Source: Alphaproteobacteria bacterium
GTDB lineage: Bacteria > Pseudomonadota > Alphaproteobacteria > Bin95
Assembly: GCA_030833925.1 (NCBI GenBank)
Contig: JAURGE010000005.1
Span: 4,654-68,653 of the forward strand
Direction: 5' to 3'
Length of the DNA stretch: 64,000 nt
In this document: piece by piece, positions 24,296 through 35,289 of the stretch
How the letters are laid out: each line of letters begins with the position of its first letter
How positions within the stretch are numbered: the first letter of the stretch is position 1
The notes under the pieces: generated by a model
Told to the model about the DNA's origin: nothing
What the model saw: only the letters and a program-made list of their open reading frames with translations
The model's database searches: none
Program-made: the position numbers and the translations under genes

Positions 24296-25216
24296 ATGAT
24301 TGAAAATTCTTCAACCAGGCGAATAGAGGGCAGAACAGTCGCTGGCATTAGTCTGATGCTATTAGCGATAGTTCTGTTTTCTTGTTTAAATGGTTCAGTT
24401 AAATGGCTGACCCAGGATTATGACCCGTTGATGGTTGTTTGGGCTCGGAATATGGGCGCTTTTGCATTCATGCTGGCTGCATTTCTGCCAAAATATGGGT
24501 TTGCTTTGTTTCGGACAGAGCGACCGCTCGGTCAGGTGGTTCGAGCCATATTCCTACTCGGTTCATCTATGCTCTACTTTTTTGGGCTCTCTTATATGGA
24601 CATGGCGACTGGCGCCGCAATTCAACTTACGGGACCTTTGATGGTGACTGCGTTGTCAGTGCCGTTGCTAAAAGAGCAAGTAGGGTGGCGGCGTTGGCTA
24701 GCAGTAATTGTAGGGTTCATAGGGGCATTAATCATAATTCGCCCTGGGTTTGATATGCGTTGGGCTGCTCTGCTTTTTCTAGCAAGCGCTTTTTGCTCCA
24801 CTTTTTATGCAATTTTTACGCGACATCTCTCCAACTACGATAATCCTGCCACGGCTGCGACAGTAGCCGCTGCCGTTGGCGTTATTGCCATAACCCCGGC
24901 GGTACCATTTTTCTGGGAAACACCGCAGGGCATACTCTCAATTTTTCTTTTCTTCTTAGTTGGGATTTTAGCTGGAGCAGGACATTTTCTGCTGACTAGC
25001 GCATATAGATACGCTGAAGCTTCTACATTAGCTCCTTTCAGCTATGTTCATCTTTTGGGTGCGGCTGTAATTGGTTTTTTTATTTTTGATCATTTTCCTG
25101 ATCTCTGGACGTGTGTAGGGGCATCCATAATTGTAACTGCGGGGCTATATGTGGCGCATAGAGAACGCCTAAAAATTCGTTCAGAAACCATTTCGCGTAA
25201 AAATAAATCTGATTAG
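24296..25216 (+). CDS. DMT (EamA-like) transporter
   Basis: VVWARNMG, LLKEQVGWRRW, ALIIIRPG, STLAPFSY; divergent from the selenoprotein gene. Confidence 0.92.
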   Translation: MIENSSTRRIEGRTVAGISLMLLAIVLFSCLNGSVKWLTQDYDPLMVVWARNMGAFAFMLAAFLPKYGFALFRTERPLGQVVRAIFLLGSSMLYFFGLSYMDMATGAAIQLTGPLMVTALSVPLLKEQVGWRRWLAVIVGFIGALIIIRPGFDMRWAALLFLASAFCSTFYAIFTRHLSNYDNPATAATVAAAVGVIAITPAVPFFWETPQGILSIFLFFLVGILAGAGHFLLTSAYRYAEASTLAPFSYVHLLGAAVIGFFIFDHFPDLWTCVGASIIVTAGLYVAHRERLKIRSETISRKNKSD

Positions 25217-26121
25217 TGTTTGGAATTATGAATTCTATCGCCCGCCAACACGAACGCTCTGACGCTACACGTGTATTTATTGATGTAGATCAGCCATTTT
25301 CCCTTACTGAACCGGTTGAGCAGACAGTGCCAATTGTTGTCGCGTCACCTCACTCTGGATCTCGTTATCCCTCCGATTTGCTTGCAGCAACCAAACTAGA
25401 CCCATTATCGCTTCGCCAATCGGAGGATGCGTATGTTGATGCTTTGTTTGGAGGCGCAACTAAGTTAGGAGCGCCGATGTTGGCGGCTGAGTTTCCACGA
25501 GCATACGTAGATGTTAACCGCGAGCCATATGAGCTAGATCCACTTATGTTCGATGCTCCGCTCCCCCCCTACGCAATCACACGCTCACCAAGGGTCGCAG
25601 CAGGACTTGGCTCAATTCCTAGAATCGTTGCTGCTGGAATTGAAATCTACGGTCGCCGATTAAGCTTTGCCGAAGCAGCAGCACGTCTCGATGCATGCTA
25701 TAAGCCTTATCATAGAGAGTTGCGCAGATTAGTTCGTACAACGCACGCTAAGTTTGATCGGTGTATTCTTATTGATGCACATTCAATGCCCTCAACGGGT
25801 CTCTCGCCAAAGAATGATCCTGGGGGGCCTATCGATATCGTTATTGGCGATAATCATGGCCGTGCCGCAGACCTGAAATACAGTGTCGCTGCTCAAGCAT
25901 ATTTTGGCGACCTTGGTTATGCAGTGACCGTTAATGATCCATACTCAGGGGGATTTGTTACCCGAGCCTATGGTGATCCCGCACAGGATATTCACGTGTT
26001 GCAAGTGGAGATTAACCGCGCACTTTATATGGACGAGCGGACGTATGAAATAAGTTCATATTTTCCAACTCTAACAAGGGATGTAACAGCGTTCATCGCT
26101 CACATCGGAACTGTTTTTTGA
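25216..26121 (+). CDS. N-formylglutamate amidohydrolase
   Basis: ASPHSG, RAYVDVNREP, YKPYH, LIDAHSMPS, NDPYSGG, QVEINRALYMDE. Confidence 0.93.
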   Translation: MFGIMNSIARQHERSDATRVFIDVDQPFSLTEPVEQTVPIVVASPHSGSRYPSDLLAATKLDPLSLRQSEDAYVDALFGGATKLGAPMLAAEFPRAYVDVNREPYELDPLMFDAPLPPYAITRSPRVAAGLGSIPRIVAAGIEIYGRRLSFAEAAARLDACYKPYHRELRRLVRTTHAKFDRCILIDAHSMPSTGLSPKNDPGGPIDIVIGDNHGRAADLKYSVAAQAYFGDLGYAVTVNDPYSGGFVTRAYGDPAQDIHVLQVEINRALYMDERTYEISSYFPTLTRDVTAFIAHIGTVF

Positions 26122-26152
26122 TTAATAACATTTTGAATCTTTGAGATTAAAT

Positions 26153-26182
26153 AAAGAAAAGGCCGCACCGAAGTGCGGCCTT
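26153..26182 (-). terminator. Intrinsic terminator of the sRNA
   Basis: Perfect 10-bp stem with TTCG loop followed by TTCTTT on the minus strand. Confidence 0.85.
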
Positions 26183-26239
26183 AAAGTATAGGGAGGAAAC
26201 GCCCAAGAAGGGCATTAGATCGCCGAAGCGATCTCATAC
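26153..26239 (-). ncRNA. mmgR: alpha-r8 / MmgR (Rfam suhB-like) small RNA
   Basis: Minus strand: hairpin AGATCGC-TTCG-GCGATCT, hairpin ATGCCC-TTCTT-GGGCGT, decamer TTTCCTCCCT (26199-26190), terminator AAGGCCGCAC-TTCG-GTGCGGCCTT plus a U-rich tail. Adjacent to the N-formylglutamate amidohydrolase gene. Confidence 0.8.
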
Positions 26240-26244
26240 TTTTT

Positions 26245-26286
26245 ATATAAAATGATGCGTCGCACAAAACAAGTGCTGCAGCGCAA
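26245..26286 (-). promoter_or_regulatory. Sigma70-type promoter of the sRNA with two TGCRNYGCA (PhaR-like) boxes
   Basis: CTTGTT-N17-TTATAT (26273-26245). TGCGACGCA lies in the spacer and TGCGCTGCAGCA immediately upstream of the -35. Confidence 0.6.
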
Positions 26287-26322
26287 TATTTTTAAAAATA
26301 ATGCTAAATTCGGGTTTCCGCA

Positions 26323-27489
26323 TTATTCCGCCGCAGTTGGGAGGTTAAGCTCCGCTAAAATACGGGCTCTATCTTGATCTACATCCGGAGCTGTGGGCCT
26401 CTCTATCGGGTCATCATACCCAGATAGTTTAACGGGATTTCCTGCAACCTTAAGCTTACCCACCTTGGGATCATTTACTTCAATAACCATTTTTCTGGGG
26501 CCAACTTGTGGGTGGGCCATGACGGCCTCTACATTATTGATGCCACTTGCTGGAATGCCCGCTGGGTCAAGTTCTGAAAGCCAATCTGCAGTGGCTCTAG
26601 TTGCAAGAATTCCCTCAACTTCCAACTCAAGCGCTGATTGATGTTCGGTTCTGGACCGATTGCTCTCGTAACGAGGATCGTCTTTTAAGTCTGGTCGTCC
26701 TACTATGTCACAAAAGCGATGAAACATGGCGTTATTGCCCGCTGCAATAATCATATGCCCATCCAATGTTTTGAATACCTGGAAGGGGGTGATGGAGGGA
26801 TGACGCCCTCCAAGCGGGCCTGGAATTTCTCCCGTGGCACCGTAGCGGGCGATCGCATTTTCACAAAATGCTATCTGGCAATCGAGCATTCCTATATCGA
26901 GCTTTCGTCCTTCACCGGTGCGCTCGCGATCGTACAATGCTGTGACCATTCCTATAGTTGTGTACAGCCCCGCACCAATGTCACCGATTGACATGCCCAC
27001 GCGTGTAGGTTCGCCTCCTGGTTGACCGGTTATAGACATTATCCCGCCCATCGCTTGAACGACCATGTCGTAGGCGGGGCGTTTAGAGTGCGGGCCAGTG
27101 TGACCAAAGCCCGAACAGGCGGCATAGATTAATCTTGGATATTTGACATGCAGATCTTCCCAGCCATAACCGAGCTTTTCCATTGTGCCTGGACGATAGT
27201 TCTCTACAATTATATCAGCGGTATCTAACAGTTTTTCAAAAATAGTTCGGTCGCTATCGTCTTTTAAATTTAGGGCGATAGATTCTTTCCCTCTATTAAC
27301 TGATACAAAATAGGCGGACTTACCGTTCACGAAAGGACCGTACTCTCGCGCATCGTCACCTGTTCCAGGCGTTTCTACTTTGATTACGCGGGCACCAAGA
27401 TCGGATAAAATCATGGTCGAGAATGGACCTGCAAGGACACGGGTAAGATCAATAACTGTTACGCCACTAAATGGGCCGGGGACAGGCAT
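26323..27489 (-). CDS. Class III (CaiB/BaiF) CoA-transferase
   Basis: VIDLTRVLAGP, LGARVIKVE, NRGKESI, ENYRPG, RPAYDMVVQAMGG (catalytic Asp). Confidence 0.95.
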   Translation of the reverse strand: MPVPGPFSGVTVIDLTRVLAGPFSTMILSDLGARVIKVETPGTGDDAREYGPFVNGKSAYFVSVNRGKESIALNLKDDSDRTIFEKLLDTADIIVENYRPGTMEKLGYGWEDLHVKYPRLIYAACSGFGHTGPHSKRPAYDMVVQAMGGIMSITGQPGGEPTRVGMSIGDIGAGLYTTIGMVTALYDRERTGEGRKLDIGMLDCQIAFCENAIARYGATGEIPGPLGGRHPSITPFQVFKTLDGHMIIAAGNNAMFHRFCDIVGRPDLKDDPRYESNRSRTEHQSALELEVEGILATRATADWLSELDPAGIPASGINNVEAVMAHPQVGPRKMVIEVNDPKVGKLKVAGNPVKLSGYDDPIERPTAPDVDQDRARILAELNLPTAAE

Positions 27490-27551: not shown

Positions 27552-28415
27552 ATGCACCCGAGGTCATGCAATCTTTCCTGTTTAGGTCCTGAAGGTTTTC
27601 ACCGCATCAGGTATTGGGAGTGGGGGCCTGAGAACGCCCTGCAAACTGTAATTTGTGTTCATGGTTTGACGCGAAATGGCCGAGATTTCGATGATTTAGC
27701 AAAGGCACTTGCAGAGCGAGGATGGCGGGTCGTTTGTCCCGATATAGTAGGACGCGGTGAAAGTGATTGGCTGAGCTTTCATACTGGATATGACTTCAAC
27801 ACATACATCAGCGATATGAGTCAATTGATTGCCCGTTTAGGAGGCGGTTCGCTTTATTGGGTTGGTACATCAATGGGCGGAATAATCGGTCAGATGGTTG
27901 CTGCGGCTTCCCATGCGCCTATTAAGCGTATGGTCCTAAACGATATCGGCCCTTTTCTGGATGTAGCCGGGCTAGCCAGAATTAAAGGCTACGTTGGCAC
28001 AGATCCATCATTTCCAAGTTTTGAGCTCGCCGAAAGGGCAATCAATGTTGTCACCGACAAGTTTGGTCCCATGGATCAAGCACAGCGGAAACGCTTTGTA
28101 GAAGTTTCAATCCGCAAAAGAAGTAATGGAGCTTTTACAATGAATTATGATCCGCAGATTGCTTGGGCATTTAAGGAGAACGAACCTCAAAGTGTTGATA
28201 TGTGGCACATATGGCCCCTTATAAAATGCCCAGTTCTTGTTCTGCGTGGCGCAGACAGTGATCTGCTGTCTGCTTCTACGTCCCAACGCATGCAGGCGGA
28301 GGGACCTAAGGCAAAAGAGCTTGTGATTGATGGCGTGGGCCACGCTCCAGCTCTGATGTCCAATGAGGAAATTAGTCGAATAATTGAGTTTTTGGAGGCT
28401 GAAGATAACCAATGA
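27552..28415 (+). CDS. Alpha/beta hydrolase, PhaZc-like (3-hydroxybutyrate-oligomer hydrolase-like)
   Basis: HRIRYWEWG, CVHGLTRNGRDFD, GRGESDWL, GTSMGG, LNDIGP, GVGHAP. Confidence 0.8.
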   Translation: MHPRSCNLSCLGPEGFHRIRYWEWGPENALQTVICVHGLTRNGRDFDDLAKALAERGWRVVCPDIVGRGESDWLSFHTGYDFNTYISDMSQLIARLGGGSLYWVGTSMGGIIGQMVAAASHAPIKRMVLNDIGPFLDVAGLARIKGYVGTDPSFPSFELAERAINVVTDKFGPMDQAQRKRFVEVSIRKRSNGAFTMNYDPQIAWAFKENEPQSVDMWHIWPLIKCPVLVLRGADSDLLSASTSQRMQAEGPKAKELVIDGVGHAPALMSNEEISRIIEFLEAEDNQ

Positions 28416-29251
28416 ACAGCTTTTCTGAAAAAAGCTTTAAAGTATTTGCTGGGTCTCAATTCATTAAAATAGCTTATCGAGATTGGGGCCCAGAAAACGC
28501 TTCTAAGGTCGCAATTTGTATTCATGGACTTTCTCGTAATATGAGAGATTTCGATGAATTTTCTAATGCAATATCTGATAATTGGCGTGTGCTTGCCGTT
28601 GATATGCCTGGGCGGGGAAGTAGTGATTGGTTAGACAATAAATCAGCATACAATTACGAGCTTTACGAAGCAGTTTGTGCCCATGCGATCGCTCTCTCAA
28701 GGACGGAGAAAGTGGTTTGGATTGGTACGTCAATGGGTGGCATACTAGGGATGCGACTTGCGGCCAAAGGGGCGCCTTTTTCCAAATTGGTTCTCAATGA
28801 TATTGGTCCGTTTATACCGGCCGAAGGTCGGCGACATAATCAAGCTAATTTTGGGAAAGACCCACGATTCAAAACTGAAGAAGAAGGCATCACTTATATC
28901 AAAGATACACGGCGTACCTTTGGTCCTTTTACAGAGGCCGGTTGGAAAAAATTTGGTACGGATAGTTTGCGCCAATTAGACGACGGCAACTGGACACTTC
29001 ATTACGATCCTGGCCTCGCTTCAGATGCGCCAATTTCAGACACTAATATGTGGGAGCTTTGGCCAAAAATTCAGGTTCCTGTATTAACTGTTTGGGGAGA
29101 AGAATCACTTCTATTAACTGCTTCTACAGTTGATCGAATGGCCTATTCTGGTCCGAAAACAGAAGTTTTTAGTGTTGCGGGTGTTGGCCATTGCCCTGGT
29201 TTAACAACACCTTCTGAAATATCGGCAATAGCTGAATTTATTGATAGGTAG
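28412..29251 (+). CDS. Alpha/beta hydrolase, tandem paralog of the preceding gene
   Basis: IAYRDWG, CIHGLSRNMRDFD, GRGSSDWL, GTSMGG, LNDIGP, GVGHCP. Confidence 0.8.
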   Translation: MNSFSEKSFKVFAGSQFIKIAYRDWGPENASKVAICIHGLSRNMRDFDEFSNAISDNWRVLAVDMPGRGSSDWLDNKSAYNYELYEAVCAHAIALSRTEKVVWIGTSMGGILGMRLAAKGAPFSKLVLNDIGPFIPAEGRRHNQANFGKDPRFKTEEEGITYIKDTRRTFGPFTEAGWKKFGTDSLRQLDDGNWTLHYDPGLASDAPISDTNMWELWPKIQVPVLTVWGEESLLLTASTVDRMAYSGPKTEVFSVAGVGHCPGLTTPSEISAIAEFIDR

Positions 29252-29261
29252 TGGTGAACCG

Positions 29262-30206
29262 ATGACTAAAGTCAAACTCGGATATCTCCTCCCTACAAGG
29301 GAGAAGATTATGAGTGGCGTTCAAGCCACCAAGCCAATCATCGATTTAGCGCGTCGGGCAGAAACTTTGGGTTATGACTCAATTTGGATAGGAGACTCAG
29401 TAACGGCAAAACCTCGCCATGATGCTTTTGTAATATTGGCAGGGATTGCTGTCGCCACAGAGCGTGTTGAATTAGGAACAGCAGTTCTCCTTCCAATGTT
29501 GCGCAATCCAGTTTTGCTTGCACATCAGGCTGCAACTTTAGATCAATTAAGTGAGGGACGACTGATACTGGGCGTTGGTACGGCTCGCGATGTTCCTGCA
29601 ATTCGAAAAGAATTCGAGGCTGTCGGAGTCCCCTTCGAAAAGCGGATAGGACGGATGTTGGAGGGCCTCGACCTGGCTAAAGCTCTTTGGGCAGGAGGAC
29701 CTGTTACCTGGGAGGGGCGATGGACAACAAACGCAGTTGAGATAGGCCCGCTACCTTTTAGGTCAGGAGGCCCACCCATTTGGGGTGGCGGGGCGGCCGA
29801 GGGGGCATTAAAGCGAGCAGGAAGATATTTTGACGGTTGGTTTCCATCTGGCCCATCGGATCCCACCGTTTTTGCAGAAAGTCTTAAACGTGTGCGCGAT
29901 TATGCTGATGCGGTAGGAAGAAATCCTGACCATGTCACCCCTGCAATGTACGTTACGGTTAGTATTAATTCTGATGTACAAAAGGCGGAAGCGGATTTGA
30001 ATTCGTATCTAGAAGCATACTACCTTCAGCCTGCGTCGAAGCTCAGACAACAGCAAGCGGCATTTTCAGGCTCAGAAGTGCAGGTTGGAGAATGGTTAGC
30101 TCGCTTTATTGAAGCCGGATGCAGCCATATTTGCATCCGCCCGGTGGGGGAAACTGAAGAACAGATGGAACGCATCATTGGTCTTTGGTCTTCGATCGGC
30201 GGCTAA
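29262..30206 (+). CDS. LLM-class flavin-dependent oxidoreductase
   Basis: AETLGYDSIWIGDS, ELGTAVLL, ATLDQLSEGRLILGVG, PPIWGGG. Confidence 0.9.
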   Translation: MTKVKLGYLLPTREKIMSGVQATKPIIDLARRAETLGYDSIWIGDSVTAKPRHDAFVILAGIAVATERVELGTAVLLPMLRNPVLLAHQAATLDQLSEGRLILGVGTARDVPAIRKEFEAVGVPFEKRIGRMLEGLDLAKALWAGGPVTWEGRWTTNAVEIGPLPFRSGGPPIWGGGAAEGALKRAGRYFDGWFPSGPSDPTVFAESLKRVRDYADAVGRNPDHVTPAMYVTVSINSDVQKAEADLNSYLEAYYLQPASKLRQQQAAFSGSEVQVGEWLARFIEAGCSHICIRPVGETEEQMERIIGLWSSIGG

Positions 30207-31036
30207 TCCACGATTTTAAGCCATTCTTCAAAAATTTCACAGCAAGGTTCAGGATTAGATAAAAACAATCGGTGTTTAGCCTCAGGGAAGGGGGCCTCAA
30301 GGTAATTAGGCAGTCTTTCTTTAAGAATTCGTGCTTGCTCTAGGTCCACGAACGGTGATTTTTGAGCGACAAAATTCAAAACAGGCATTGTGAGTTGATC
30401 AAGCCTAGGACCTAAATCAGCTTGTCTGAGCGTAGTTACTAAGGCGGCTGCAGCCTCTGGCATTACGTCAAGTTGGCAGGTTTCCGCCCAATCAATTATT
30501 TTTTTATCGTCTTTTTCGTAATCAAAGCTTCCAGAAAGGATCATATCTGACCAGGTTTTAAGGCCTCCTTTTTGGGTGATAACTGATGGCCAATCGGAGA
30601 TATTATTTACTAAATCACCGCGCCATCCTGTGGATGCAACTGCGATACCTTTAATGAGTTGAGGTCTTGTTACAGCTAAATAAAGTCCGACTGTTCCGCC
30701 AAAACTTTCACCGACAAATATGCAGTTTAGGATACCCAGACTTTGTAAAACGTCGTCGATGTCCTGGGCATAGTCTTCTAAATCAAGGCTAGGTGCCTTC
30801 CAAATAGGCTTTGAGGCGCCGTGACCGCGCATATCAATTGCTATACAGGCCCTATCGGCAGATACTCGACGGATCCAGGGAAGCCAAGCGCGGCTATCCA
30901 GGCCAAGTCCATGCTGGAAAACTAAAGGCACTCGTGCAGGGTTCCATGGATTAGTCAAATCAATCAGTCTAAAGCCAACACCTTTTGGGCTGTATCTGAT
31001 TGTATTTAATTTGACCGTATCCATCCTGATTATCAC
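30203..31036 (-). CDS. Alpha/beta hydrolase (enol-lactonase-like)
   Basis: FQHGLG, IDMRGHG, GESFGG, terminal His (AKHRLF). Confidence 0.82.
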   Translation of the reverse strand: MIIRMDTVKLNTIRYSPKGVGFRLIDLTNPWNPARVPLVFQHGLGLDSRAWLPWIRRVSADRACIAIDMRGHGASKPIWKAPSLDLEDYAQDIDDVLQSLGILNCIFVGESFGGTVGLYLAVTRPQLIKGIAVASTGWRGDLVNNISDWPSVITQKGGLKTWSDMILSGSFDYEKDDKKIIDWAETCQLDVMPEAAAALVTTLRQADLGPRLDQLTMPVLNFVAQKSPFVDLEQARILKERLPNYLEAPFPEAKHRLFLSNPEPCCEIFEEWLKIVD

Positions 31037-32679
31037 CCAGCTGTAACTGTTGGTAGGACATAATCTTTAAAGCGCTCACGAAGCTGTAACTTAGAGAGTT
31101 TGCCCGTGGCTGTATGGGGCAATTCGTCGACAAAAACCACGTCGTCGGGCGTCCACCACTTTGCAATCTTCCCCTCTAAAAAGTCTAACATTTGTTGCTT
31201 GTCCAGATCTTGGCCGCTCTGGGTTTTAACAACAACAAGTAACGGGCGTTCATCCCATTTAGGGTGTGGCATCCCGATCGCGGCGGCTTCGGCCACTTTT
31301 GGATGACCAACAGCTACGTTCTCCAGGTCAATGGAGCTAATCCATTCGCCACCTGACTTGATAACATCTTTAAGACGGTCCGTTATCCAAATATATCCGT
31401 CAGGATCGATAGCGCACACGTCGCCCGTGCTAAACCAACCATCTTCGGCATGCGCTTCTGCTCTTTCAGCCAAGTTAAAATAGTCACTAATTATCCAAGG
31501 CCCAGTTACTTTAAGTTCGCCCGTAGCCTTACCGTCATTTGGGAGAGTGTTGCCATCTTCATCAACAATTTTCATGTCGACACCATACAAAACGCGGCCT
31601 GCACTTTGCTGCAGGTCCATCCGCTCAACTTCACCAAGCCCGTTATGCTTCATTTTCGGTGTGTTAACGGTGCCTAAAGGCGACATTTCTGTCATTCCCC
31701 AGGCATGAAGTACTTGTACACCGTACTTGTTTTGGAAGGTCTCCATCATAGCTCGAGGGCAAGCGGAGCCACCAATTACGACCCGCTCCAGGTCATTTAA
31801 ATTGCCATCTATTTCCTGCATGTGAGCAAGAAGCATCATCCAAATCGTCGGTACGGCTGCAGTAAAACTAACTTTTTCACTTGTTAGGAGATCATAGATA
31901 CTTCTGCCGTCTAGATGCCTACCAGGCAGAACGAGCTTGCAGCCTGTAGCTGCCGCCGCATAAGGCGTACCCCAAGCATTGACGTGAAACATGGGGACTA
32001 CTGGCATAACGGTATCTCTGCTCGACAAACCCATACAGTCAGGTGCTATCTGAGCTAATGCATGGATGATTGTCGATTTATGAGCGTAGAGCGCTCCTTT
32101 AGGGTTGCCTGTGGTTCCACTAGTGTAGCAAAGCGCAGCAGCTGAATTATCGTCGAATTGTGGCCACGCAAATTCATCACTTTCTGAAGCGATCAAGTCT
32201 TCGTAGCAGATTGGATTTCGGAGCTTTGACACGTCCGGCATGTTTGCTTTATTGGCTAAGACTATCACGCCCTTAACGTTAGGAGCCTTCGGCAAAAGAG
32301 CCTCTACAAGTCCCACAAAGGTTGTATCGATGACTAGAAATTGGTCATCAGCATGGTTTACGACATACTCTAGTTGTTCAGGGAATAGGCGGGGATTTAT
32401 CGTATGGGTTACCGCCCCTATCCCGGAAATACCGTAATACGCTTCCAAATGGCGATAAGTATTCCAAGCAATTGTACCTATTCGGTCACCTTGTTTGATT
32501 CCCTTTTTTAACAGGGCTTGAGCAAACTTTTTGGCGCGTTTTTCTGCGTCAGACCAGGTATATCGATGTATCGGGCCTTCTACCGTTTTGGTCACTATTT
32601 CTTGGTCGCTGTGCCATTTTCCAGCGTGGGCGATCAGGCTCGAGATCAATAACGGTCGATCCATCATCTTTGCGAGCAT
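31033..32679 (-). CDS. Medium-chain acyl-CoA ligase, 3-(methylthio)propionyl-CoA ligase (DmdB)/AlkK-like
   Basis: [65 protein letters not shown]. Confidence 0.85.
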
Positions 32680-32766: not shown

Positions 32767-33963
32767 TTGAAATTATTCCAAACTTTTAACGAAGAGGAGT
32801 TTAGCAAAAATTGGCGGGTGATCGTTGCTGGTTTCGTGATGGCCTTTTTTGCTTGGGGGATGATTTTCTATGCCCATGGTGTTTTTAAAGCGGTCTTGGA
32901 GGCCAAATACGGCTGGTCGCCTGTCCTCATGTCTTTTGCACAAACATGGTTTTGGTTTGTGGGGGCAATTGCCGCTTTTCTGGCTGGGGCTGTAATTGAT
33001 CGATTGGGTCCACGCACTGTTGCCTACTACGGAGCAGCAGCAACCGCGTTTGGTCTTGTTGCTATTACTTTTGTTAACGATCCTTGGCAGCTCTTTTTAG
33101 CCTACGCGATACTAGCAACAGCTTATCCACCTATAGGAAATCTTGGGATTTCTGCGGCGCTGGCTCCGATTTTTGAGAAGCATTATGCGACTGCCTTGTC
33201 GTTAGCTTTGACGGGAGCAAGTTTAGGTGGCGCGATAGTGACGCCGCTATACATCTTCCTTACGTCAGTACTTGGGTTTGAGATGGCCTCTTGGATTCTA
33301 GCTGCCATTACTTTGATCAGCCTTACTGCTATTTTGCGTTGGACGCCTACTCCAACTTTGACCTCAAAGTCAGTACCTAATGAGAGTGGAGTTGAGGCCT
33401 TTCGTAGTGCGATAAAGTCGCCCATATTTTGGGTAATTTGGCTAACTGGGCTGTTTTCATTCACTGGTCAGGTAGGCTTCCTCTTCCAGGAAATATCAAT
33501 CTTTTTGCCCCGTATGGGGCTAGAAAATGCCGGGTATGCAGTTAGCCTAACAGTTATTGCTGCAGCTTTTGGACGTTTCATTTTGGGTTGGGCGGCGACT
33601 ATCTGGAGATTAGGTGTGGTCGCATCCGGAGTTTACGCTGTTCAAGCAACTGGCTTGTTCATTGCATTGATAGACGAAGGGGTTGTTACTTCTTTTATTG
33701 CTGCTTTTATCATTGGGCTGGCAGTAGGGCCTGTGGTGATGCTACCTGCGATGTTGATCCGGGCGGCTTTCGGACCAAAAGGATTTGGCAAAATATTTGG
33801 TCTGTCTAGCGTCGGTATGTTTGGCGGAATGATGATCGGCCCTGGAATTACAGGTTTAATTTCGTCTTATATAGGTAATCAGGAAGCGTTAAGTGGCCTA
33901 GTTGCGTGCCAACTTGTATCAGCAGTTTTAATCTTTTTTTGGTTTAAGAGTCGCGTTGGTTAG
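32767..33963 (+). CDS. MFS transporter
   Basis: About 12 TM segments, AGAVIDRLGPR motif A, GRFILGW, FGPKGFGKIFG. Confidence 0.9.
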   Translation: MKLFQTFNEEEFSKNWRVIVAGFVMAFFAWGMIFYAHGVFKAVLEAKYGWSPVLMSFAQTWFWFVGAIAAFLAGAVIDRLGPRTVAYYGAAATAFGLVAITFVNDPWQLFLAYAILATAYPPIGNLGISAALAPIFEKHYATALSLALTGASLGGAIVTPLYIFLTSVLGFEMASWILAAITLISLTAILRWTPTPTLTSKSVPNESGVEAFRSAIKSPIFWVIWLTGLFSFTGQVGFLFQEISIFLPRMGLENAGYAVSLTVIAAAFGRFILGWAATIWRLGVVASGVYAVQATGLFIALIDEGVVTSFIAAFIIGLAVGPVVMLPAMLIRAAFGPKGFGKIFGLSSVGMFGGMMIGPGITGLISSYIGNQEALSGLVACQLVSAVLIFFWFKSRVG

Positions 33964-35188
33964 CTTTAATGAAAGCTGCAACGCGGGGCTGAATTTCCTC
34001 ACGCCAACGCTTACCGTTAAAAACACCATAATGACCGATCCCTGGTTGGACCCAGACATTCTTCATTTTAGAAGGAATATTCACGCAAAGGTTGTGAGCT
34101 GCTTGGGTCTGCCCAACACCAGATATATCGTCTTTCTCGCCCTCAACGGTCATAAGAGCTGTGTGTGTGATCGCGGCAGGTTCAACCAATTCACCACGCC
34201 AAATAAATTTACCGTCAGGCAGATAATGTTCTTGGAAAATGCGCTGAATGGTGTCCAAGTAAAACTCTGCTGTCATATCCATTACGGATAAGTATTCATC
34301 ATAAAATCTGTGGTGTTGTTCAACGCTATCGCCATCACCATCCACAAGATTTTCATAAAGTTTTACATGAGCATTCACATGCCGGTCCATGTTCATAGTC
34401 ATGAAGCCCGTCAGCTGTAAAAAGCCAGGATAAACACGCCTCATTGCGCCAGGATAATACATGGGGACGTTATAGATGACGTTTTGCTCAAACCACTCTA
34501 GGTCGCGGGAAGTTGCCAGTTTATTAGGAACTGTAGGACTTTTACGGGTATCGATAGGGCTACCCATTAGAGTAAGTGATGCGGGTACATTTGGGTCATT
34601 GGCAGCTGACATGATTGCGGTGGCTGCAAGGGCTGCCGGTCCTGGCTGGCACACAGCTAACACGTGCAAGTTTGGACCAAGTTTTTGGCAATAGCTAATT
34701 AAATAACTAATATAGTCATCTAGATTAAAGAAACCCGCTGATAGTGGAATTTCTCGCGCATCAATCCAGTCAGTAATGAACACATCGTGGTCTTGGAGCA
34801 TCGCTCGTACCGTTCCACGAAGAAGTGTTGCATAATGTCCGGACATTGGAGCAACCAAAAGTACCTTTGGAGCCTTCTTCTGACTGTCTGGTAAAGCTGC
34901 TTCATCGCGTTCGAAATGCAATAGACGTCCAAAATGCTGTTCCATAACGATTTTTTCGCGGACAGGAACAAGGTTTTGCCCGATCATAACCTCGTCAATA
35001 TCAAAAGACGGTTTGCCGTAACGCTTGGTTAAGCTTTCAAATACTTCACAAGCCGCTGCTAGTGCACGGCTGGAAGGCCACCCGGCGTAGGGGTTTTGAG
35101 GGGATTGCAGAAATCCTCGTGTTGCCGTTGCCATATTCCTATAGGGGCGGAGCGCAGCATGAGAGAACTCGTAAGCGGTGTATAGCAT
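33944..35188 (-). CDS. phaZ: Intracellular polyhydroxyalkanoate depolymerase (PhaZ1 type)
   Basis: VAPMSGHYATLLRGTV, AVCQPG (Cys lipase-box), PGFLQL, TVEGEKDDISG, GHYGVFNG. Confidence 0.96.
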   Translation of the reverse strand: MLYTAYEFSHAALRPYRNMATATRGFLQSPQNPYAGWPSSRALAAACEVFESLTKRYGKPSFDIDEVMIGQNLVPVREKIVMEQHFGRLLHFERDEAALPDSQKKAPKVLLVAPMSGHYATLLRGTVRAMLQDHDVFITDWIDAREIPLSAGFFNLDDYISYLISYCQKLGPNLHVLAVCQPGPAALAATAIMSAANDPNVPASLTLMGSPIDTRKSPTVPNKLATSRDLEWFEQNVIYNVPMYYPGAMRRVYPGFLQLTGFMTMNMDRHVNAHVKLYENLVDGDGDSVEQHHRFYDEYLSVMDMTAEFYLDTIQRIFQEHYLPDGKFIWRGELVEPAAITHTALMTVEGEKDDISGVGQTQAAHNLCVNIPSKMKNVWVQPGIGHYGVFNGKRWREEIQPRVAAFIKANQRDS

Positions 35189-35230
35189 TCGACGCCTCTA
35201 TCCAAAAACCTTCGCAATGTAGCAGTGGAT

Positions 35231-35246
35231 TTGTGCGATGCAACAA
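35231..35246. promoter_or_regulatory. PhaR-like box upstream of phaZ
   Basis: TTGTGCGATGCAACAA, a near-palindrome 43-58 nt upstream of the phaZ start; 11/12 identical to TTGTGCGACGCA in the sRNA promoter. Confidence 0.6.
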
Positions 35247-35289
35247 AATTCTTTTTAAAGCATTCAAATAAATCAAAATTTGGTTGTCT

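Follow-up and report, generated by a model that had tools for sequence, protein, structure and literature searches.

The 64,000-nt stretch of alphaproteobacterial DNA analysed here (the window) very probably carries, at approximately positions 26237-26150 of the minus strand, an mmgR/suhB gene of the alpha-r8 family, whose product would be a trans-acting small RNA (sRNA) with the same general mode of action as its relatives. Both the identity and the general mode of action follow from homology and from the anatomy of the RNA. Searching the entire window with the models of Rfam 15 gave a match to RF00519 (suhB, "Makes More Granules Regulator RNA (mmgR)") at 26220-26145 on the minus strand, with a score of 69.5 bits (E = 2.8e-12) and a gathering score of 41 bits. 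The match is not truncated and covers positions 1-77 of the 77 in the model, and it was the sole above-threshold Rfam match in the window. An earlier note on this DNA had proposed an alpha-r8/MmgR-type sRNA at this place and named an Infernal search against Rfam as the check; the suhB/alpha-r8 covariance model matched at full length and above its gathering score, in agreement with that proposal. The locus is an ordinary copy from a family that has long been known, through which many Alphaproteobacteria adjust their carbon storage, and a default Rfam scan detects it; it shows the family-level features, namely a weak hairpin, a single-stranded decamer, an intrinsic terminator, a convergent N-formylglutamate amidohydrolase (FGase) gene and a promoter with a TGC-N3-GCA box. 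Its value is one of annotation, in that one ncRNA gene can be placed, with its boundaries, promoter and likely regulator, in an uncultured Rhodospirillales-type genome.

A search of the whole genome, which is a 2.78-Mb assembly of 181 contigs (~91% complete, 49% G+C), repeated the window result and gave a single RF00519 copy. Of 41 related genomes, 30 have the family, among them every one of the ten in the same genus. Within the genus (G002-G009), most genomes have two or three RF00519-type matches each, the extra ones mostly below the cut-off, and this ~91%-complete MAG has one. The host is an uncultured Rhodospirillales-type MAG; for the gene next to the RNA, the most similar public sequences come from MAGs labelled Rhodospirillales or Alphaproteobacteria bacterium. 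Elsewhere in the window, the frame at 31033-32679 on the minus strand matches 3-(methylthio)propionyl-CoA ligase (NF005426, 866.8 bits with a cut-off of 822). This is an enzyme of DmdB type, which takes part in DMSP demethylation, and it hints at a marine lifestyle.

The minus-strand sequence from 26239 to 26145 is GUAUGAGAUCGCUUCGGCGAUCUAAUGCCCUUCUUGGGCGUUUCCUCCCUAUACUUUAAGGCCGCACUUCGGUGCGGCCUUUUCUUUAUUUAAUC. Its MFE fold consists of exactly three hairpins (SL1, SL2 and SL3) and leaves UUUCCUCCCU unpaired, with an energy of -40.9 kcal/mol as opposed to -19.6 +/- 2.7 kcal/mol in dinucleotide shuffles (z = -7.9; 0 of 200 shuffles folded as well). SL1 (26217-26234, minus strand) is seen in the fold and lies outside the Rfam model; it is a 7-bp hairpin, AGAUCGC-UUCG-GCGAUCU, with a C(UUCG)G loop. 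SL2 (26201-26213, minus strand), given by the Rfam alignment, is the weak hairpin GCCC-UUCUU-GGGC with a UUCUU loop. Directly after SL2 lies the anti-Shine-Dalgarno decamer (26190-26199, minus strand), the predicted seed, which is unpaired in both the MFE and centroid folds. Searched for as TTTCCTCCCT, the decamer has one occurrence in the 64-kb window, at 26190-26199 on the minus strand, where 0.2 would be expected. SL3 and its U-rich tail (26150-26182, minus strand, with the hairpin at 26182-26159) were called by the terminator scan as an intrinsic terminator, which is also the likely Hfq-binding 3' end. The stem of SL3 has 10 bp, is G+C-rich with seven G-C pairs, and is closed by a 4-nt C(UUCG)G loop; the tail reads TTCTTTATTT, and the run UUUUCUUUAUUU comes after the hairpin. 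The earlier note's description of three consecutive hairpins, two of them with UUCG loops, a single-stranded decamer and a Rho-independent terminator on the minus strand thus holds in every part. Starting at 26237, the RNA is predicted to be about 85-88 nt long.

To compare this anatomy with that of nearer relatives, covariation and leader sequences were assessed in an alignment of 25 homologues. The segment GCGUUUCCUCCCU is almost invariant in the alignment, and the decamer is essentially invariant. Variants of the decamer are rare: one locus of the same genus (L023, genome G005) lacks one C and reads UUUCCUCCU, and two other loci (L017 and L024) read UUGCCUCCCU and UUUUCUCCCU, respectively. 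The helices of SL2 and SL3 covary, with 91% of cells paired and compensatory changes on both sides in 11 of 14 pairs (two of four in SL2 and nine of ten in SL3); none of 500 shuffles reached the observed values, and pairing was 25-57% with the partners slid. SL1 is missing from the Rfam model because the model begins only 7 nt before SL2. When the leaders of the 25 relatives were folded, nearly all nonetheless gave a predicted hairpin immediately before SL2, built from unrelated sequences (for example GCAGGA-guua-UCCUGC, AUAGGA-ucua-UCCUAU and GGCG-uugg-CGCGCC). SL1 is therefore normal for the family and not a peculiarity of this locus, and the Rfam model leaves out a hairpin predicted in nearly all relatives examined. 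A review likewise describes MmgR as having three stem-loops. We restrict the claim about SL1 to the 25 nearer relatives because a fixed-offset test for the 5' hairpin in a wider set of FGase loci was noisy in Devosiaceae.

Upstream of the RNA, all on the minus strand, we found a series of putative promoter elements. The core of a distal PhaR/AniA-type box, TGCGCTGCA (26277-26285), was read from the sequence as a predicted site that fits the motif YGCRNYGCR and abuts the -35 hexamer. The latter, TTGTTT (26267-26272), lies inside a conserved cTTG element that can be aligned across relatives. A proximal PhaR/AniA-type box with the core TGCGACGCA (26256-26264), a predicted site of the form TGC-N3-GCA, sits inside the spacer, and the -10 hexamer TATATA (26244-26249) follows 17 nt after the -35 hexamer. 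The predicted transcription start lies at 26235-26239, with 26237 as the best guess, 7 nt past the -10 hexamer and 13 nt past the 21-nt PhaR site. A strict sigma-70 consensus scan found no promoter upstream of the sRNA, since the -35 hexamer agrees with TTGACA at only three of six positions, and the promoter call rests for this reason on the alignment with relatives. Their upstream regions share cTTGa, TGC-N3-GCA and an A+T-rich -10 element in this order; the -10 elements are of ATAT type and in the same register, and some 20 of the 25 have the box immediately after the -35 element. L016 and L023, which are the closest relatives, also carry a box at the place of the distal one. The sRNA's own sigma70-like promoter, as the earlier note had it, is therefore upheld by elements conserved in relatives, but not by the strict consensus scan.

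Published work on S. meliloti gives the PhaR (AniA) motif as YGCRNYGCR with A+T-rich arms, and reports that the mmgR promoter has a PhaR site 13 nt before the start and that purified His6-PhaR shifts this fragment efficiently in EMSA. Applied here, the 13-nt spacing from box to start gives 26237, within the start at 26237-26239 that had been predicted from the sequence. A review table lists RpoN for S. meliloti mmgR; by eye, no sigma-54 element of the form GG-N10-GC is present upstream of the start in this genome. We also built a PhaR matrix from seven EMSA-tested S. meliloti sites and ran it over the whole genome, in which the proximal 21-mer of mmgR (26250-26270) scored 13.1 bits and ranked 38th of 2.78 million positions. 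By score, the sRNA promoter would be a moderate member of the PhaR regulon, and the conserved position of the box argues for membership more than the score does.

The same matrix indicates that a compact predicted PhaR regulon clearly exists in this genome. Profile searches of the genome found one phasin (PF09361, 73 bits), PhaR (96.7 bits, a 220-aa frame on contig C99), Hfq (110 bits) and PhaC (258.6 bits). The top matrix sites lie before genes of polyhydroxybutyrate (PHB) metabolism, from which we conclude that a PhaR regulon of the known type is present: the phasin gene has sites of 26.3 and 21.9 bits, phaZ 19.4 bits (window position 35228), phaR 18.1 bits and phaC 16.4 bits, and further sites precede a thiolase-like gene of 391 aa (23.7 bits, probable phaA) and a short-chain reductase-like gene of 240 aa (23.2 bits, probable phbB). 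Strong PhaR-type palindromes of the form TTGTGCA-N-TGCACAA were observed at C106:16453-16532, C99:4045, C99:13343, C99:14677, C159:19517 and window 35228-35248; they precede the phasin gene (two boxes), probable phbB, phaR, probable phaA, phaC and phaZ, and one of the phasin-gene boxes has a 15-nt core identical to that of an S. meliloti phaP1 site. The rhizobial MmgR-PhaR-PHB module is thus recognisable in a free-living relative of moderate G+C content (49%). Within the window, the earlier note had seen several PHB-mobilisation genes near the sRNA, of which phaZ alone was confirmed (33944-35188, minus strand; TIGR01849, 597 bits), 7.7 kb from the sRNA. An alpha/beta hydrolase at 30203-31036 scored 51 bits with the intracellular PHA depolymerase model, for which the cut-off is 300 bits, and two further alpha/beta hydrolases at 27552-29251 had only generic hydrolase Pfam matches.

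On the genomic side, the sRNA gene converges with an FGase gene at 25216-26121 on the plus strand (PF05013, 234.6 bits), as had been read from the sequence. Convergent FGase microsynteny is characteristic of the alpha-r8 family without defining it. Of 25 related loci, 16 have a convergent FGase gene as the immediate 3' neighbour of the RNA. Seen from the FGase side, 80 loci were taken from a broad range of alphaproteobacterial genera (Kaistia, Devosia, Maritalea, Pelagibacterium, Roseiarcus, Rhodobium and others), and in 56 of them the decamer lies no more than 600 nt downstream of the FGase gene and on the other strand, so the synteny that the earlier note had named for MmgR is real and wide. 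Upstream of the RNA and on the same strand lies a family III CoA-transferase gene (26323-27489, minus strand), which ends about 85 nt before the sRNA and occupies this place in only 4 of 25 loci. Between the two, an A+T-rich hairpin at 26294-26329 (minus strand; about 10 bp, 15-nt loop, -8.7 kcal/mol) is followed by a T-run, extends over the CoA-transferase stop codon and represents a weak candidate terminator before the sRNA promoter. We also considered a recombination boundary at the RNA gene, as suggested by the amino acid identities to the closest relatives (95% for the CoA-transferase and 74% for the FGase), and ruled it out, as the whole 3-kb locus aligns in a single alignment with a uniform nucleotide identity of ~73%.

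This arrangement bears on whether the RNA has a promoter at all, since it might instead be a 3'-UTR fragment processed from the mRNA of the CoA-transferase. The short distance to the end of this gene on the same strand would allow it, and read-through is plausible given that the sole intervening hairpin is weak and A+T-rich. However, the promoter elements and the PhaR box are kept in relatives that have other genes upstream, and the S. meliloti homologue is reported to have a mapped start of its own, which makes such an origin improbable. Still less credible is a role in cis, as a leader or riboswitch-like element acting on a same-strand gene downstream. This was the original reading of the "suhB" motif, and the Rfam family's name and history speak for it, as does the first annotation of S. 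meliloti sm8, which was as SuhB. There is, however, no gene to control: the 3' end is a strong terminator, the next gene (FGase) is on the opposite strand, no minus-strand coding region is seen in the sequence past 26150, and characterised members of the family act in trans. That the hairpins are mere terminators of two convergent genes, with no function as RNA, is just as hard to credit, for although SL3 is a minus-strand terminator and the complement of SL1 with CATACTTTTT scores as a plus-strand one, this would leave unexplained why the decamer is invariant, why SL2 covaries, why a promoter with a PhaR box is conserved and why the match to a family whose RNAs have been detected by experiment reaches 69.5 bits.

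We therefore continue with the reading of an independently transcribed, trans-acting MmgR-type sRNA. In the mechanism that we propose from its relatives, the RNA would be transcribed on its own from approximately 26237 to 26150 on the minus strand and bound by Hfq, as are characterised relatives, and the decamer would pair with the purine-rich Shine-Dalgarno regions of several mRNAs, ideally AGGGAGGAAA, and block their translation. The PHB-sensing repressor PhaR/AniA may in turn repress transcription of the sRNA through one or both of the TGC-N3-GCA boxes around the -35 element, which would tie the level of the sRNA to carbon/nitrogen status and polyhydroxybutyrate metabolism.

Candidate targets were ranked with our own crude duplex-energy script over 2,461 start regions, a ranking that has no accessibility term and uses heuristic gene starts. 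In this ranking, the PHB genes (phasin, phaZ, phbB, phaA and phaC) were unremarkable among the 2,461 heuristic start regions: phaZ reached -13.5 kcal/mol (15th percentile), phbB -12.9 kcal/mol (18th percentile) and phaC -10.9 kcal/mol (36th percentile), and the phasin start region, at -6.7 kcal/mol, fell in the 82nd percentile, which is worse than the median. Pairing alone, then, gives no prediction of a direct link to PHB. According to published work on S. meliloti, MmgR holds down the levels of PHB and phasins, and MmgR lacking the decamer leads to over-accumulation of both; the same literature names no direct target. A direct phasin route, as in the earlier note's "via phasins", would go beyond what is demonstrated even in S. 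meliloti, and the single phasin mRNA here pairs poorly. That the pairing predictions do not single out the phasin mRNA fits the literature's lack of known direct MmgR targets.

In a genome-wide scan with the seed that used no gene calls, the top matches were the gene's own antisense strand and sites that lack a clear gene start. The longest perfect complements of the decamer at the Shine-Dalgarno position span 8-11 nt, or 9-11 nt of UAGGGAGGAAA, and lie in the start regions at C100:1966, C95:11807, C102:20732, C126:16487, C107:7930, C126:61024 and C150:4135. Judged by eye, most of the products begin with a signal-peptide-like sequence and resemble periplasmic solute-binding proteins (Bug/TctC-like, two LivJ-like and TRAP-type), with the best matches in this class at C100:1966, C95:11807 and C102:20732, and the others resemble the large subunit of a molybdopterin dehydrogenase, an amidohydrolase and a GlpX-like phosphatase. 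Because strong Shine-Dalgarno sites are common in genes of these kinds, we regard these complements as a lead and not as a finding. It is conceivable, if doubtful, that the main targets in this free-living lineage are mRNAs of solute-binding proteins rather than of phasins.

A further question is whether the tight and widely kept convergence with the FGase gene is itself functional. The terminator scan found no canonical plus-strand terminator between the FGase stop codon (26121) and the site formed by the complement of SL1 (26217-26244, plus strand). With this as the first plus-strand terminator, FGase transcripts may carry a 3' UTR that is fully antisense to MmgR. It is conceivable, if doubtful, that this antisense 3' UTR serves as a built-in sponge or that the two genes interfere in transcription; if so, the FGase 3' UTR would couple the use of a histidine-derived nitrogen source to a regulator of carbon storage.

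Among known systems, the AbcR1 and AbcR2 RNAs of Rhizobiales have mRNAs of periplasmic solute-binding proteins as their target class. The sRNA described here would work like them, through a single-stranded, pyrimidine-rich anti-Shine-Dalgarno motif, and the overlap in targets is one of crude prediction only. AbcR1/AbcR2 are nonetheless a different RNA family, and the window has no Rfam match to AbcR.

Closer comparisons can be made within the family, the hallmark of which is given in the literature on alpha-R8 RNAs (PMC12559287) as an internal single-stranded 10-mer, 5'-UUUCCUCCCU-3', downstream of a weak hairpin. The alpha-R8 siblings SisA-D of Caulobacter crescentus, which have been described as Hfq-associated, linked to carbon availability and sponged by the RNA CrfA, share the decamer, weak hairpin and terminator with the RNA found here. 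In Caulobacter there are thus four copies, regulated in different ways, together with a sponge; here a single copy was found. In Sphingopyxis granuli TFA, SuhB, which is described as homologous to MmgR, pairs with the aid of Hfq at the Shine-Dalgarno regions of thnR, phbB and a TonB-dependent receptor and represses them, and its deletion results in more PHB granules. Its validated targets and its LysR-type activator are species-specific; here, in contrast, the promoter has PhaR-type boxes, and phbB, a target in Sphingopyxis, pairs only moderately (-12.9 kcal/mol).

The most informative comparison is with the founding member of alpha-r8, MmgR (sm8/SmelC689) of Sinorhizobium meliloti. The RNA in this genome differs from it in its predicted length (about 85-88 nt compared with 77 nt), in a linker after the decamer that is 2 nt longer (UAUACUUUAA), in a second PhaR-type box just upstream of the -35 element, and in a host that is uncultured, non-symbiotic and of Rhodospirillales type. 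In common with MmgR, it is single-copy, has three stem-loops and carries the decamer between a weak hairpin and the terminator, its predicted promoter is of sigma-70 type and has a PhaR/AniA site (TGC-N3-GCA) some 13 nt ahead of the start, and its host genome, like that of S. meliloti, encodes Hfq and a full set of PHB genes.
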